From Patescibacteria group bacterium (lineage in GTDB: Bacteria; Patescibacteriota; Patescibacteriia; JACRDY01): a DNA stretch of 64,000 bases. The notes beneath the pieces are model-generated. The model saw only the letters and a program-made list of their open reading frames with translations. It did not search any database and was not told the origin of the DNA. The stretch is taken from positions 86,175 through 150,174 of the forward strand of contig JBAZFH010000001.1 of assembly GCA_041653535.1 (NCBI GenBank). Reading direction: 5' to 3'. The number at the start of each line of letters is the position of its first letter. Within the stretch, counting starts at the first letter, position 1. Positions 2,234 through 63,934 of the stretch are shown one piece after another. Both the position numbers and the translations under genes were made by a program.

Positions 2234-2315
2234 GCGCGGGTGGCGAAATTGGTAGACGCACTACCTTGAGGTGGTAGCGCCGCAAGGCTTGGAGGTTCGA
2301 GTCCTCTCCCGCGCA
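2234..2315 (+). tRNA. tRNA-Leu (anticodon GAG), long variable arm
   Basis: Cloverleaf: acceptor gcgcggg/cccgcgc, anticodon stem ctacc/ggtag with loop ttGAGgt, long variable arm, T-arm ggagg-ttcgagt-cctct. Confidence 0.85.
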
Positions 2316-2332
2316 TTGAAAAATATTTTTTT

Positions 2333-2409
2333 GGGCAACTAGCTCAGTTGGTTAGAGCATCTCGTTTACACCGAGAGGGTCAGGGGTTCGAATCCCTTGT
2401 TGCCCACCA
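2333..2409 (+). tRNA. tRNA-Val (anticodon TAC), CCA encoded
   Basis: Acceptor gggcaac/gttgccc, anticodon stem tctcg/cgaga with loop ttTACac, T-loop ttcgaat, 3' 'acca'. Confidence 0.85.
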
Positions 2410-19497: not shown

Positions 19498-19573
19498 TGG
19501 CGGGCTCGAAGGGAATCGAACCCTCGGTCTCCTCCGTGACAGGGAGGCATGTTAACCGCTACACCACGAGCCC
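19498..19573 (-). tRNA. tRNA-Asp (anticodon GTC), CCA encoded
   Basis: Reverse complement gives gggctcg...cctcc-ctGTCac-ggagg...ttcgatt...cgagccc-g-cca. Confidence 0.85.
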
Positions 19574-22100: not shown

Positions 22101-22498
22101 TGGTGGAGATGGCGGGAGTTGAACCCGCGTCCAGAAAGACAAAGCCATTTAATCTACAAGTTTAGTTTGTTTAATTTTTTTTCGGCGAACAAGGTAATAA
22201 ACAAACAAAATCCTTTTTCGCTATAGCCTTTAGTCTCGTAGCTTTCCTAGGCAAAAAAACTACCAGCCCGAAATATAACACCGGTGGAGCCCCTATCGGG
22301 TGTCAGGGAACCGATGGACTGGTGCTTTAAGCAGCAGTCAAAGCAAAAGCCGGAACGGCAAAAGCTTGCGCTAATGCGTTTTTGGCCTTGTTAAATAAGT
22401 TTGCACTTATAATTTTCTAGAATGGTTTAATGAGACAATCTAGAATGCTCAACCTGCTAAATAACGTTGTAACCTTCCTGTCGAAGCCCAGCATCCCC
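22101..22498 (-). ncRNA. ssrA: tmRNA (SsrA)
   Basis: Minus strand 5' 'GGGGATGCTGGGCTTCGAC' and 3' 'GCGGGTTCAACTCCCGCCATCTCCACCA' form the tRNA-like domain. The internal tag ORF ends '...AFALTAA-TAA'. Adjacent to smpB. GC-rich relative to the genome. Confidence 0.8.
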
Positions 22499-59861: not shown

Positions 59862-60204
59862 GTCTATTTTTTAACCTTGTTTTCTTATCCACAGGGGGTC
59901 GAGAAAAATGTTTTTTTTGATAAAAAGCGACACTATAAAAAGACAGTATTTTGGCGACGAAAGCTGTCTTTTGCTAAATATTTGACAGTACTACATCTAG
60001 TGTTATACTAAAAACATAGACACAATATATTGGGTTGATTGAAAAAATAGCATTTCACCACGGCAGCATTTTTTAAATCACCCTAAAAAACAAAAATAAA
60101 AATATTTCTGAATTTTTTAGGGGTAAAATTAGCCAAAATATTTGGGGGGATAAAAAGTACCCACTCTAGGGACTTTTTTTAACCCTCAAAATTTCTAAGA
60201 TTTT

Positions 60205-60663
60205 ATGAGATGTCCTGCTTGTTATCATGAAGAAACTAAAGTCGTTGACTCGCGTACCGGAGCTGATGACATTTCTATTCGTCGTCGTCGAGAATGTCTC
60301 AAATGCGGTTTTCGTTTTTCAACCCAAGAAGAAGTGGTAATTCTTGATTTAACAGTAATAAAAAAAGACGGTCATAAAGAGTCTTACTCTAGAGAAAAAC
60401 TCCAGGGTGGTCTGAAAAAGGCATTAGAAAAGCGTCCGATTAGTCGTGATGACTTTTTAAAACTAGTAAATAATATTGAACGTGATATTCAAGTCAGATC
60501 AAAAGGCAATGAAATAAGCACTGTACAAATTGGAGAACTGGTAATGAAGCGGTTAAAAAAAGTAGATAAAATTGGTTTTATAAGATTTGCTTCCGTGTAC
60601 CAGTCTTTCAAAGATGCTAAGGCTTTTCAGCAAGAGTTGGGGAAGTTACTAGGGAAAGACTAG
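60205..60663 (+). CDS. nrdR: Transcriptional repressor NrdR
   Basis: Zn ribbon 'MRCPACYHEETKVVDSR...CLKCGFRF' followed by an ATP-cone. Confidence 0.9.
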   Translation: MRCPACYHEETKVVDSRTGADDISIRRRRECLKCGFRFSTQEEVVILDLTVIKKDGHKESYSREKLQGGLKKALEKRPISRDDFLKLVNNIERDIQVRSKGNEISTVQIGELVMKRLKKVDKIGFIRFASVYQSFKDAKAFQQELGKLLGKD

Positions 60664-60790
60664 TTGGTAGTTGGTAGCTGGTAGTTGGGGATTAGAAAAT
60701 TTTTATAACCACCCGTCTACGTTCGCCGCGGCGGACTTCGGCGAGGCAAGCTAATCACTAATCACTAATCACTAACCACTAACCATCTGC
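60662..60790 (+). repeat. Two heptanucleotide microsatellite arrays: (TTGGTAG)~3.5 and (AATCACT)3+(AACCACT)
   Basis: 'agttggtagttggtagctggtagttgggg' and 'aatcactaatcactaatcactaaccactaaccatc', read directly from the nrdR-nrdD spacer. Confidence 0.75.
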
Positions 60791-60872
60791 CCGTAATACT
60801 ACCTGTCCGAAATGCCATATCAATGGCAGGCGGGCGCGGAAGCGTTGCAGGCGGGCTAACCACTAAATAATT

Positions 60873-62972
60873 ATGTCGGCAGCAGTTTTGGGTAAAAATC
60901 ACATCAAGCAAATCATCAAACGGGATGGGCGTATTGTTGATTTCGAACAAGAAAAAATCACTAATGCTATTTGGAAGGCGATGCAGGTCACTGGTGAAGG
61001 CAGTAAAAAAATAGCCGGAAAGGTGTCAGATCAGGTAGTAGATTTAGTCAGCAAAAAGTTTCACGAGAGATCAATTCCGGCTGTTGAAGAGATTCAAGAT
61101 ATTGTCGAAGAGGCTTTGATTCGCAATAGACATATCAAGACTGCCAAGGCCTATATTTTATATCGCGACCAGCGTCGTCAAATCAGAGATTTTCAGACGA
61201 TGATTGATTCTAACGAGCTAGTAGAGGGGTATTTGCGGCAAGTTGATTGGCGGGTCAAGGAAAATAGCAACATGAGTTATTCGTTACAGGGACTTAACAA
61301 CCACGTTGCTTCAGCCGTATCAGCTCATTATTGGCTTAACCGGGTTTATCCTGTAGAGATTCGCGAGGCTCACTCTAGCGCAGGTATTCATATTCACGAT
61401 CTGCAGCTGCTCGCTGCTTATTGCTGTGGTTGGGATCTTAAGGATTTGCTTGTCAAAGGTTTTGCTGGTGCAGCCGGTAAGGTAGAAAGTAAACCAGCCA
61501 AGCATTTTCGTACCGCTCTTGGTCAGCTAGTTAACTTTTTTTATACTTTGCAGGGCGAAGCCGCTGGCGCACAGGCGGTGGCAAACTTTGACACGCTACT
61601 TGCTCCGTTTATTCGTTACGACAAACTTGATTATAAAGAGGTAAAGCAAGCATTGCAAGAATTTTTGTTTAACATGAACGTCCCGACTCGAGTTGGTTTT
61701 CAAACCCCATTTACTAATGTGACTCTAGATTTACAAGTGCCTTCTTATTATCGCGACGAAGCCGTGATTATTGGGGGCAAGTTAATGCCGGAAAAATATG
61801 GCGAGTTTCAGGCAGAGTTAGATACTTTCAACCAAGCCTTTGCCGAAGTATTGTCTGAAGGTGACGCTAAGGGACGCGTTTTTACCTTTCCCATTCCAAC
61901 TTACAATATCACCAAGGATTTTAACTGGGAAAACAGAGTCTTGGATAAAGTTTGGGAAATGACTGCCAAATACGGTATTCCTTATTTTGCCAATTTTGTT
62001 AACTCGGACATGAATCCGGAAGATGCTCGTTCAATGTGTTGCCGTTTGCGTCTGGATAACAGAGACTTACGTCGTCGGGGTGGCGGACTTTTCGGCGCCA
62101 ATCCGCTAACTGGCAGTATCGGAGTAGTTACTATAAATTTGCCGCGGATTGGTTATTTGGCTAAAGGAAAAAGTTTAGACGAACTAAAGGCATCTCTGGC
62201 TGAAATTATGGACTTAGCCCGCTCTAGTCTGGATATTAAACGTAAAACTCTGGAAAATTTTACCGAGCAGGGTCTTTATCCTTATTCTTCTTTTTACCTT
62301 CGTGGTGTCAGGGAGCGTTTTGGCGAATACTGGAAGAACCATTTTAATACCATTGGTATTAATGGTATGAACGAACTATTACTTAACTATTTAGGACCGG
62401 ATAAAAATATTGCTACCCCAGAAGGAAAGGCGCTTGCCACCGAATTGATGGATTTTATGAGAGAAAAAATTGGTAAATACCAGGAGGAATCTAATAGCTT
62501 GTTTAATCTTGAAGCTACGCCAGCTGAAGGTACTTCTTATCGTTTTGCCAAGCATGACAAAAAACATTATCCTGATATTCTTGTGGCCAACGAAGACGCT
62601 TATAAAGAAAAGAACGCCGACCCTTATTATACTAACTCGACTCATTTGCCGGTTAATTATACCAACGATATTTTTGAAGCCCTCGATTTACAAGATGACT
62701 TGCAGTCTAAATATACCGGCGGTACCGTGTTGCACGGTTTTATTGGTGAAAAAATGCCGTCACCGGAAGCGACTAAAAATTTGGTCCGTAAAATCGCTGA
62801 AAATTATCATTTGCCATATTATACTATCACTCCGACTTTTTCGGTTTGCCCTAAACATGGATATATTGCCGGTGAGCATTTTTTCTGCCCCAAATGCGAT
62901 GAAGAAATCGGTCTGGTAAACGAGCAGACCAAAGCAGATTTGCCTATTGAGTCGCTGACTCCGCAAAATTAA
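60873..62972 (+). CDS. nrdD: Anaerobic ribonucleoside-triphosphate reductase (class III) NrdD, lacking the C-terminal glycyl-radical motif
   Basis: N-terminal ATP-cone. Active-site 'MCCRLRLDNRDLRRRGGGLFGANPLTGSIGVVTINLPRIG'. C-terminal Zn site 'CPKH...CPKC', then a stop with no 'RxxGY'. Confidence 0.85.
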   Translation: MSAAVLGKNHIKQIIKRDGRIVDFEQEKITNAIWKAMQVTGEGSKKIAGKVSDQVVDLVSKKFHERSIPAVEEIQDIVEEALIRNRHIKTAKAYILYRDQRRQIRDFQTMIDSNELVEGYLRQVDWRVKENSNMSYSLQGLNNHVASAVSAHYWLNRVYPVEIREAHSSAGIHIHDLQLLAAYCCGWDLKDLLVKGFAGAAGKVESKPAKHFRTALGQLVNFFYTLQGEAAGAQAVANFDTLLAPFIRYDKLDYKEVKQALQEFLFNMNVPTRVGFQTPFTNVTLDLQVPSYYRDEAVIIGGKLMPEKYGEFQAELDTFNQAFAEVLSEGDAKGRVFTFPIPTYNITKDFNWENRVLDKVWEMTAKYGIPYFANFVNSDMNPEDARSMCCRLRLDNRDLRRRGGGLFGANPLTGSIGVVTINLPRIGYLAKGKSLDELKASLAEIMDLARSSLDIKRKTLENFTEQGLYPYSSFYLRGVRERFGEYWKNHFNTIGINGMNELLLNYLGPDKNIATPEGKALATELMDFMREKIGKYQEESNSLFNLEATPAEGTSYRFAKHDKKHYPDILVANEDAYKEKNADPYYTNSTHLPVNYTNDIFEALDLQDDLQSKYTGGTVLHGFIGEKMPSPEATKNLVRKIAENYHLPYYTITPTFSVCPKHGYIAGEHFFCPKCDEEIGLVNEQTKADLPIESLTPQN

Positions 62973-63012
62973 AAAAATAATAAAAATATAAAAAAGAATA
63001 ATTACAAATAAT

Positions 63013-63162
63013 ATGACAGCTAACAAATTGCAGCGTCAAGAATGTGAGGTTTACTCCCGCGTGGTCGGATACTTGCGTCCGGTTCAGCAATGGAACAAGG
63101 GTAAGCAAGCCGAGTTCCATGATCGCCAGGAGTATAACAAGCAACTTTGCGACAACTGCTAA
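63013..63162 (+). CDS. 49-aa ORF encoding an NrdD-type glycyl-radical motif ('SRVVGYL') with flanking Cys pairs. Probable detached C-terminal piece of NrdD.
   Basis: 'MTANKLQRQECEVYSRVVGYLRPVQQWNKGKQAEFHDRQEYNKQLCDNC'. It is in a different frame from nrdD, with an in-frame TAA at 62989-62991. Below the ORF-track size cut-off. Confidence 0.55.
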   Translation: MTANKLQRQECEVYSRVVGYLRPVQQWNKGKQAEFHDRQEYNKQLCDNC

Positions 63163-63232
63163 ACCTTTTTTACAAAAACAAAAATCAAAAAGCTGGTCTG
63201 TCTTTAGGACCACTTTTTGTTATAATAATCAT

Positions 63233-63934
63233 ATGTTAATAGGCGGATTACAAAAAACTTCGTTGATTGACTATCCGGGTAAAATAGCGGCGGTTGTTTT
63301 TACCGCTCGCTGCAATTTTAAATGCGGTTTTTGCCACAATCCGGAGCTATCCGGAGAGAAGGATCAATTAACCAAAGATTTTTTTCTTGAAAAGGAAATA
63401 TTGGATTTTTTGGAAAAAAGAAAAAAAGTGCTTGACGGCGCAGTGATTACCGGTGGTGAGCCGACGCTACACAAAGATTTACCTGAATTTATCAGAAAAA
63501 TTAAAAATTTTGGTCTAGCGGTGAAACTCGATACCAACGGCACTAATCCTAAAATGGTGGAAAAACTGATTAAAGAAAAGATGGTTGATTTTATCGCTAT
63601 GGATATCAAGGCGCCACTGCGGCTTTACGCCAAAGTGACAAACAGCAAGCTAGGCACGGATAATATCAAAAAAAGCATTAAGCTAATCATGAATAGCGGA
63701 ATTGACTATGAATTTCGTAGCACGTTGCTACCGGCGCTGCACACCAGGGAAGATGTCGCAGCGATGGCTAGGCTGATAAAAGGCGCCAAAAAATACGCTC
63801 TGCAAAAGTTTTTCTCTAGCGGTGGTAAGCTGCTCGACGAGAGTTTCGCTGATAAGCGTGGTTTTACGGATAAAGAAATGAAGGAATTGGCGGTAGTTTG
63901 TGAAGGCTTGGTTGAGAAGGTAGTGGTGAGGTAA
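63233..63934 (+). CDS. nrdG: Anaerobic ribonucleotide reductase activating protein (radical SAM) NrdG
   Basis: 'CNFKCGFCHNPE' CxxxCxxC, 'DGAVITGGEPTL'. ATG at 63233; the ORF-track 5' extension is in frame but non-homologous. Confidence 0.85.
   Translation: MLIGGLQKTSLIDYPGKIAAVVFTARCNFKCGFCHNPELSGEKDQLTKDFFLEKEILDFLEKRKKVLDGAVITGGEPTLHKDLPEFIRKIKNFGLAVKLDTNGTNPKMVEKLIKEKMVDFIAMDIKAPLRLYAKVTNSKLGTDNIKKSIKLIMNSGIDYEFRSTLLPALHTREDVAAMARLIKGAKKYALQKFFSSGGKLLDESFADKRGFTDKEMKELAVVCEGLVEKVVVR

Follow-up and report, generated by a model that had tools for sequence, protein, structure and literature searches.

The window analysed here, a 64,000-nucleotide (nt) stretch of contig JBAZFH010000001.1 (GenBank assembly GCA_041653535.1, positions 86,175 to 150,174 of the forward strand) from a Patescibacteria group bacterium, carries a gene cluster for a class III ribonucleotide reductase (RNR), in which the catalytic gene nrdD ends before its glycyl-radical loop and a separate open reading frame (ORF) of 49 amino acids (aa) encodes that loop. 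We consider it likely, at a probability of roughly 85%, that this locus specifies an obligate two-polypeptide class III RNR, the chain of which is naturally divided right after the zinc ribbon. As judged from related genomes, a divided NrdD is the norm for a large clade within the Candidate Phyla Radiation (CPR), and the split is also present in a DPANN archaeon and in phage-like contigs; by its substitution pattern, the small ORF is a conserved coding gene under purifying selection. Glycyl radical enzymes are viewed as single chains, the C-terminal domain of which swings out to the activase and back in to work, and to our knowledge the sole exception to this view is GrcA, the spare part of pyruvate formate-lyase (PFL).

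The genes and the spacer concerned are arranged in the window as follows.

60873..62972, + strand: nrdD, large (catalytic) subunit, 699 aa, TAA stop (Pfam NRDD 1-531 of 562, E 5.8e-184; NF006126, 1052 bits)
62973..63012, + strand: spacer of 40 nt between the nrdD TAA and the small-subunit ATG, 5% G+C, nearly all A/T, offset to the +1 frame
63013..63162, + strand: predicted small glycyl-radical subunit, 49 aa, MTANKLQRQECEVYSRVVGYLRPVQQWNKGKQAEFHDRQEYNKQLCDNC (Pfam NRDD 530-562 of 562, E 1.4e-11)
63233..63934, + strand: nrdG, radical S-adenosylmethionine (SAM) activase, 233 aa from the ATG at 63233 (TIGR02495 NrdG2; Pfam Radical_SAM and Fer4_12)

The original prediction, made from the sequence of the window, had described a 699-aa NrdD with an ATP-cone, a CCR region and a CPKH...CPKC zinc site, lacking an RxxGY motif, followed 40 nt downstream by a 49-aa ORF in another frame and behind an in-frame TAA, which it took for the NrdD C-terminal glycyl-radical loop, and then by nrdG. 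Each of these points was borne out by the profile searches and coordinates given here.

The catalytic subunit

The locus has the NRDD barrel, the Cys loop, the C-terminal zinc site and the nearby nrdG of a class III RNR. In the large ORF, an ATP-cone spans aa 13-102, and the Cys loop SMCCRL lies at aa 387-392 (62031-62048); both of its Cys residues are invariant across 27 aligned homologues and probably serve as the site of the thiyl radical. The zinc motif, CPKH-x10-CPKC, follows at aa 659-675 (62847-62897), with C659, H662, C672 and C675 as the ligands of a predicted structural zinc site made of two knuckles. All four ligands are invariant across the 27 paired homologues, and position 662 is Cys or His among relatives. 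Beyond the zinc ribbon, the polypeptide has a tail of 24 aa, DEEIGLVNEQTKADLPIESLTPQN (62898-62969), ending in LTPQ, and the clade to which this large subunit belongs shares a conserved CPKC-DEEIGY extension, the D, E and G of which are invariant.

The large ORF scores 1052 bits with the NF006126 equivalog model (cutoff 548), and its coverage by Pfam NRDD (PF13597) stops at profile position 531 of 562 (E 5.8e-184). The glycyl-radical motif RVxG[FWY] is absent from the barrel polypeptide and is carried, as SRVVGY, by the separate 49-aa ORF. Because the large subunit has no glycyl-radical loop, the small protein would be the sole radical carrier; a second nrdD was not found within the 64-kb window. 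The activase gene nrdG, which starts 70 nt 3' of the small ORF, is a clear equivalog of the NCBIfam model TIGR02495 NrdG2 (E 3.8e-61, 205.8 bits, cutoff 131).

The small protein

The small ORF stands in the +1 frame relative to nrdD, with its nearest in-frame upstream stop, a TAA, at 62980. Its product contains the motif CEVYSRVVGYLRP, in which Gly19 (63067-63069) of the RVVGY loop is the predicted radical residue, and its side of the junction reads ...KLQRQECEVYSR. Pfam NRDD matches it from profile position 530 to 562 of 562 (E 1.4e-11, 44.2 bits, with the cutoff at 26.2). Between them, the ORFs thus tile the NRDD model exactly, with positions 1-531 on the large and 530-562 on the small ORF, and the NCBIfam models give the same picture, so that the two together make exactly one NrdD and the small match is not due to chance. 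Neither Pfam nor NCBIfam gave a PFL or Gly_radical match for the small ORF at E <= 1, and only NrdD models were hit. Pfam, NCBIfam and PHROG hold no dedicated family for the small protein, the only matches of which are to the C-terminal part of models for full-length NrdD.

When the 49-aa ORF was compared with about 5.8 billion proteins, 1430 matches were obtained. The best 120 of these are all free-standing proteins, 41-82 aa long, with the shared core [RK][QT]xCEVYSRVVGY[LI]RPVxxWNxGKxxE[FY]xxR; named sources among them are Patescibacteria (Magasanik-, Azam- and Parcubacteria, WS6), a metagenome-assembled genome (MAG) labelled Synergistales, and a Pacearchaeota archaeon. In the source records, these small proteins are labelled "anaerobic ribonucleoside-triphosphate reductase", "oxidoreductase" or "hypothetical". 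In the 28-codon core of the 78 small ORFs from split loci (the window and its relatives, described below), nine residues are invariant in 78/78, namely C1, Y4, R6, G9, P13, N18, K21, E24 and R28. The proportion of synonymous differences (pS) in these codons is 0.81, i.e., saturated, and that of nonsynonymous differences (pN) is 0.25, with dN/dS at about 0.24 in the usable pairs. The combination of saturated synonymous sites, low pN and an invariant core points to a translated gene under purifying selection, rather than to a pseudogene fragment or the product of an indel.

The invariant C1 of the core corresponds to Cys11 of the window protein (63043-63045), eight residues before Gly19. This Gly-8 position is Cys in all 120 database proteins and all 78 small ORFs (198/198), whereas in fused NrdD representatives it is Cys in 17/63, with Thr as the commonest residue. 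In more distant split lineages, Cys is found in six of seven small ORFs (L087, L147, L099, L123, L100 and L145, not L086). Of the "flanking cysteines" to which the original prediction had drawn attention, the upstream one is therefore invariant; the C-terminal CDNC is missing from most homologues and thus is no conserved feature. Terminal Cys pairs do recur on small subunits (CDNC at 63148-63159 of the window, CESC and CC elsewhere), unconserved overall, and Cys pairs such as CETCQ, CVEC, CEEC, CSEC and CQSC occur in large-subunit tails (L018, L038, L049, L058, L072, L080). They are reminiscent of the C-terminal redox-shuttle cysteines of class I and class II RNRs. A thioredoxin-like CPNC domain is present in some fused relatives (P0155, P0178, P0187, P0193, P0210, P0223, P0236, P0237).

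Small subunits come in two flavours, ...SRVVGYLRP... and ...SRVVGWLTP..., both of which comply with the general glycyl-radical fingerprint RVxG[FWY] (PMC13450708). The second flavour, with Trp after the radical Gly and the downstream motif CIVYSRVVGWLTPVKNYNPGKASEY, occurs in roughly half of the related species (L018, L022, L033, L038-L080 and others).

The split in related genomes

The comparison set comprised 80 loci from GTDB species representatives with a large subunit 65-80% identical to that of the window, in which the Gly loop was located by motif search and tblastn. The split arrangement was found in 77 of these loci, two are fused (L020 and L070), and in the remaining one the contig ends 61 nt past the nrdD stop. 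The search of related genomes proposed with the original prediction thus gave 77 split loci among the 79 that could be scored. Across the 78 split loci, the window included, 4 to 411 nt (median about 70) separate the nrdD stop from the ATG of the small ORF, and the relative frames 0, +1 and +2 occur 32, 23 and 23 times. The ATG is at the identical alignment position in every one of the 78 small ORFs, and a GGAGG is visible ahead of several. Some spacers in the related split loci are richer in GC, and the assemblies are independent and come from many projects. In the related loci, each small gene has a loop-less nrdD as its partner, and no additional small gene accompanies the two fused nrdD genes.

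Gene order is not fixed. In the MAG locus L081, the order is nrdD (679 aa), nrdG (230 aa) and small gene (50 aa), and in the phage/viral contig L100 the small gene lies 1.4 kb downstream, beyond several unrelated ORFs. A DPANN archaeal contig (L083/L084) has the order nrdR-mazG-nrdD(701)-small(55)-nrdG, and archaeal RNA polymerase genes adjoin in a sister contig. A WS6 locus (L085) is split with a 5-nt gap, and the phage-like contigs L087 (next to a terminase gene), L099 and L123 are split as well. One locus, L066 (2382-6915, on an 8.2-kb contig), contains an exact tandem duplication of 2267 nt (100% identity) with nrdD and the small ORF, which is probably an assembly artefact rather than a real duplication.

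In a wider, exhaustive HMMER search, the large subunit found 8319 matches among 1.84 billion cluster representatives, and the best 150 (50%-identity clusters) were classified: about 58 stop a little past the second CxxC, about 51 are of the fused type, and the rest are fragments or belong to a "CPYPHTEE" variant. Fused representatives have just 3-5 residues from the CxxC to EVYSR. In the variant (P0128, P0136, P0138, P0142, P0143 and others), CPYPHTEE... stands where CPxC, the second zinc knuckle, would be, and a long extension follows it; there is no Gly loop, and a separate small ORF is present in L100 and L145. A rough neighbour-joining (NJ) tree of 60 representatives has the split and fused states interleaved, with at least about 11 changes, a count that is only indicative because the internal branches are very short. 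The fused locus L020 looks like a secondary re-fusion that has retained the former initiator Met (CPKCDEDD-MSPQKLERQKCEVYSR). The interleaved states, together with L020, mark the boundary between zinc ribbon and Gly loop as a recurrent point of fission and fusion.

Two split lineages, L086 (4700-5035) and L147 (4870-5144), have charged heptad-like helices on both the C-tail of the large subunit (for example, LAEARGEYEKKLSDLQQKKEALLAEVE and KDEKLHEIDKKIEKLQKELEVE) and the N-terminus of the small subunit (RIARVDEQISQVEQKLKD and KEELKKELNDLRALRQEIL). These matching tails may form a coiled-coil tether and are reminiscent of the interaction tails in the fragmented NrdA of phage Aeh1 (PMC3045599). 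Taken together, the Gly-8 Cys, the CPKC-DEEIGY extension and the matching tails suggest that the enzyme has adapted to existing as two chains, which need not mean that being split is of benefit.

Two further rearrangements were seen in the family. An 836-aa protein, P0191, is an apparent NrdD-NrdG fusion, in which the glycyl loop is followed by a linker and then by the N-terminal motif of NrdG (...MTLSDYPGKV...), the opposite of the split. Inteins are frequent in the family of the window's NrdD: many 50%-cluster representatives (among P0121-P0270) reach 800-1900 aa, and their match to the 699-aa query is broken up into 2-4 stretches, with the breaks clustering near query residues 178, 277, 390 (beside the Cys loop) and 555, and the gene at 567-3323 of L146 has a Pfam Intein_splicing match within NRDD.

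Structure prediction

An AlphaFold2 (AF2) model was made of the large subunit without its ATP-cone, concatenated to the small subunit, from an unpaired alignment of the window's sequences with database homologues, fused ones among them. The model has a mean predicted local distance difference test score (pLDDT) of 91.4 and a predicted template modelling score (pTM) of 0.91. The core of the small subunit, with a pLDDT of 89-94, is predicted as a beta-hairpin finger and a helix, i.e., the EVYS strand, the RVVGYL loop, a second strand and the KGKQAEFHD helix; low values, 57-73, are confined to the junction, made up of the 24-aa large-subunit tail and the 9-aa small-subunit N-terminus. Compared with the NrdD structures of Thermotoga maritima, Prevotella copri, S. 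thermophilus and phage T4, the model gives template modelling (TM) scores of 0.67-0.76, and it agrees with a small peptide placed in the normal position of the Gly finger.

Proposed mechanism

In the two-polypeptide enzyme proposed here, the ATP-cone, the barrel, the Cys loop of the thiyl radical and the zinc site would all come from the 699-aa subunit. The elements with which NrdD normally terminates, a glycyl-radical finger (here RVVGY, with Gly19) and a short C-terminal helix, would come from the 49-aa protein. The small protein would be translated separately, probably off a transcript shared with nrdD. NrdG would abstract the H-alpha of Gly19 using SAM, the Gly loop of the peptide would dock in the barrel opposite Cys388/389 as the fused domain does, and catalysis by the holoenzyme would then proceed as in any NrdD.

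The glycyl radical domain of P. copri NrdD is mobile, and its order and disorder are coupled to the ATP-cone (PMC11226230); in the split enzyme, such domain mobility could become association and dissociation. Since O2 cleaves glycyl radical enzymes at the Gly (PMC13450708), a Gly placed on a peptide of about 50 aa could act, speculatively, as a "fuse" that makes repair cheap, at a cost of about 50 rather than about 750 residues. Equally speculatively, a separate peptide would also leave the Gly loop freely accessible to the activase. A tentative extension, which we think rather unlikely as it stands, is an exchangeable "radical cartridge": NrdG would activate the peptide free in solution, the peptide would be loaded reversibly and replaced after O2 cleavage, and the Gly-8 Cys (in some lineages also the coiled-coil tails) would latch it to the zinc ribbon.

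Alternative explanations

Viewed in the window alone, a stop codon followed by a change of frame looks like a disruption, and nrdD might be a decaying pseudogene, broken by a recent frameshift or nonsense mutation, with the 49-aa ORF as its orphaned 3' end; sporadic fragmented nrdD genes occur in phages, e.g., in phiAS4 (PMC3653736). However, 77 of the 79 scorable related species have the split with differing spacers and frames, and their loci are no assembly copies of a single sequence, being 65-80% identical and coming from different contigs and studies. The small ORF, moreover, keeps its ATG and nine invariant residues despite saturated synonymous divergence, and the large subunit reaches 1052 bits on the equivalog model, with nrdG and nrdR intact. 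Pseudogenisation, one of three readings left open by the original prediction, is thereby effectively excluded. The same holds for another of them, a sequencing or assembly indel that broke one full-length nrdD, the probability of which we regard as negligible: although the junction is an A/T run (5% G+C) of an indel-prone type, one indel cannot account for a TAA and for 31 residues without homology, 22 of them in the tail past the conserved DE and 9 at the N-terminus of the small protein, where fused relatives have just 3-5 residues between CxxC and EVYSR, and the same architecture recurs in independent assemblies with varied gaps and frames, some with GC-richer spacers and some with intervening genes. 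Programmed recoding, by a +1 frameshift or a bypass of the T4 gene 60 type, could in principle join the ORFs in one chain, and the 40-nt gap with its +1 offset is comparable to the 50-nt gap of gene 60. This is very improbable given gaps of anything between 4 and 411 nt, frame offsets spread about evenly over the three possibilities, an ATG at the same alignment position in all small ORFs (preceded by GGAGG in several), and no conserved take-off or landing codons or RNA structure seen in the spacer; the nrdD-nrdG-small order of L081 and the 1.4-kb separation in L100 settle the question against recoding.

The remaining reading of the original prediction, in which the class III RNR is split by nature and its radical subunit acts in trans, has strong support from the comparative data. 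The analogy that it drew with the spare part GrcA/YfiD holds in so far as a small radical-loop protein would act in trans, but the partner here has no loop of its own, which makes the small protein the sole carrier rather than a backup. A true spare part would require a full-length NrdD elsewhere in the genome, to be rescued by the small protein after O2 cleavage. This has precedent in GrcA/YfiD and T4 Y06I for PFL (PMC13450708, PMC8683613), and the visible genome amounts to 64 kb; it is nevertheless improbable, for the adjacent large subunit without a glycyl loop implies a constitutive need for the small protein, the window has no second nrdD, the related small genes always go with a loop-less nrdD, and the fused loci lack an extra small gene. 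A weightier alternative, less probable than not but to be taken seriously, accepts a real and functional split and denies it any gain in repair or regulation, as a fission at a permissive domain boundary by constructive neutral evolution. The interleaving of split and fused states (at least about 11 state changes among 60 representatives in the rough NJ tree), the apparent re-fusion in L020 with its former start Met (DEDD-MSPQKLERQKCEVYSR), and other C-terminal rearrangements in the family, such as NrdD-NrdG fusions and added redoxin domains, all fit neutrality. Against it, the split dominates large clades and persists across saturated divergence, and it has features of its own, namely the Gly-8 Cys (198/198 vs. 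17/63 in fused forms) and the matching helical tails in two lineages.

Several points weigh against the two-polypeptide enzyme itself, or against the rationale offered for it. The case for expression, radical formation and activity is wholly comparative, and the docked position of the peptide is no independent proof, because the fused homologues in the alignment partly dictate the AF2 placement. No Shine-Dalgarno sequence precedes the small ORF of the window, and likewise none precedes nrdR, nrdD or nrdG. A second full-length nrdD is possible outside the visible 64 kb. The "replaceable fuse" is a proposal, and the split could be selectively neutral.

Other explanations of the junction were considered and rejected. 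A zinc site shared across the chains is unnecessary, as the large subunit has a complete C/H/C/C set; the co-occurrence of His and Cys in fused forms is weak (13/17 vs. 23/46). A split intein would need longer tails than those present, and the HN/Cys+1 junction motifs are absent. As to mobile elements, the 40-nt spacer contains no ORF and the window has no Rfam intron match; between the halves in L100, nothing nuclease-like was seen by eye, no family search having been made there.

Regulatory sequences and other features of the window

The gene order in the window, all on the + strand, is nrdR, nrdD (large), small ORF and nrdG, and the remaining features of the locus are the following.

59982..60035, + strand: putative operon control region, a sigma70-like promoter followed by one NrdR-box-like site (consensus matches only)
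60205..60663, + strand: nrdR, 152 aa, Zn-ribbon/ATP-cone repressor of nrd genes (Pfam Zn_ribbon_NrdR, E 3.1e-18; ATP-cone, E 5.9e-18)
63194..63212, + strand: terminator-like hairpin TGGTCTGTCTTTAGGACCA, then CTTTTTG, between the small ORF and nrdG (consensus scan)

The predicted promoter upstream of nrdR, TTGACA-16-TATACT with a TG, has 11/12 consensus matches. It is followed at 60020-60035 by the NrdR-box-like palindrome ACACAATATATTGGGT, which differs by one mismatch from ACACWATATATWGTGT; the pattern search found no second NrdR box. This arrangement suggests an autoregulated expression of nrdR, nrdD, the small ORF and nrdG. The consensus scan found no strong promoter or terminator match inside the 40-nt spacer between nrdD and the small ORF. 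After the hairpin at 63194-63212 and its T-run, a TATAAT-like sequence lies ahead of nrdG, the expression level of which might differ from that of nrdD and the small ORF.

The spacer between nrdR and nrdD (60660-60875) contains short direct repeats, GTTGGTA-like (four copies) and AATCACT/AACCACT (five copies), that can pair with one another. Together with a GC-rich segment downstream, they form two long predicted hairpins with a minimum free energy of -72.4 kcal/mol (z -2.87), a stability equalled in only 1 of 200 shuffles. No Rfam match was found for this fold, which could be an nrdD leader or attenuator, or a repeat element. Nearly all long ORFs of the window are on the + strand. The window also contains a tmRNA gene (155 bits) and three tRNA genes, with positions at 22101-22498 (-), 2234-2406 (+) and 19501-19573 (-), and the nearest relatives of its nrd genes are in Patescibacteria MAGs, which makes a CPR bacterium its most likely source.

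Comparison with known enzymes and significance

The split enzyme belongs to the same family, by hidden Markov model, and has the same predicted fold (TM 0.67-0.76) as the canonical single-chain NrdDs of phage T4, E. coli, T. maritima and P. copri (PDB 1H7A, 4COI/4U3E, 8P23). The ATP-cone, the barrel, the Cys loop, the C-terminal zinc site, the RVxGY loop, the WNxGK...E...R tail, the nrdG partner and the control by nrdR are common to both. Two differences stand out. First, in characterised NrdDs the zinc site and the Gly loop make up one C-terminal domain of a single chain (PMC11226230), whereas here the Gly loop and the tail are on a separate 49-aa product. Second, the second zinc ligand is His (CPKH) in the window enzyme and Cys in canonical NrdD.

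With GrcA/YfiD and T4 Y06I, the mini-subunit shares the form of a small free-standing glycyl-radical protein, presumably activated by the cognate activase and inserted in a barrel without a working loop. However, GrcA is a homologue of the PFL C-terminus and measures about 127 aa; it occurs alongside a full-length PFL, which it rescues once O2 has cleaved that enzyme. The mini-subunit, by contrast, is a homologue of the NrdD C-terminus with no PFL-type domain, is 41-82 aa long, and has a loop-less partner in the window and in 77/79 related loci. The fragmented RNRs of phages are a precedent for catalytic subunits made in pieces that can yield an active enzyme, the examples being Aeh1 nrdA-a/nrdA-b (split by mobE), phiYS40 nrdJ-a/b and intron- or intein-interrupted nrdD (PMC3045599, PMC3653736). 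In contrast to these, the window junction has no mobile element, intron or intein, the break falls at the boundary of zinc ribbon and Gly loop, outside the barrel, and the split NrdD is ancient and widespread in cellular lineages, beyond single phage genomes. The small subunits of X-succinate synthases (BSS beta/gamma) are also accessory polypeptides that contact or control a glycyl radical domain (PMC13450708), but they carry FeS clusters, have no radical glycine and have no sequence relationship to the mini-subunit.

A review of June 2026 names formate lyases as the only glycyl radical enzymes with identified spare-part proteins, the existence of others being "yet to be determined" (PMC13450708). 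Surveys of split phage RNRs list intron-, intein- and endonuclease-interrupted genes and sporadic fragmentations, and a split between zinc ribbon and Gly loop is not among them (PMC3653736). No published description of a split NrdD of this kind was found in the full-text literature searched, the coverage of which leaves out most subscription journals; this absence is accordingly no proof of novelty, and we put the chance of a prior report at roughly one in four.

The split may matter for annotation, in that such large subunits give the impression of being "truncated", and small ORFs of this kind are easily overlooked or called hypothetical. Such errors bear on metabolic reconstructions of CPR and DPANN organisms, where the capacity for deoxynucleoside triphosphate synthesis is a key question. 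On the evidence of sequence comparison, the split alters the architecture that one expects of glycyl radical enzymes, and it provides a system that is tractable. A split class III RNR would demonstrate a natural trans-acting Gly loop as the default state, its mini-subunit would be a minimal natural substrate for studies of target recognition and activation by NrdG, and the dynamics of glycyl radical domains and the repair of O2 damage would become directly testable by mixing, exchanging or mutating the peptide. If the radical cartridge were true, this would be the first glycyl radical enzyme with a separately encoded, diffusible mini-protein radical cofactor as its normal state; regulation of RNR through subunit association, together with the ATP-cone, would be possible, and the genome-reduced CPR and DPANN organisms and their phages would have a cheap means of surviving oxygen pulses.

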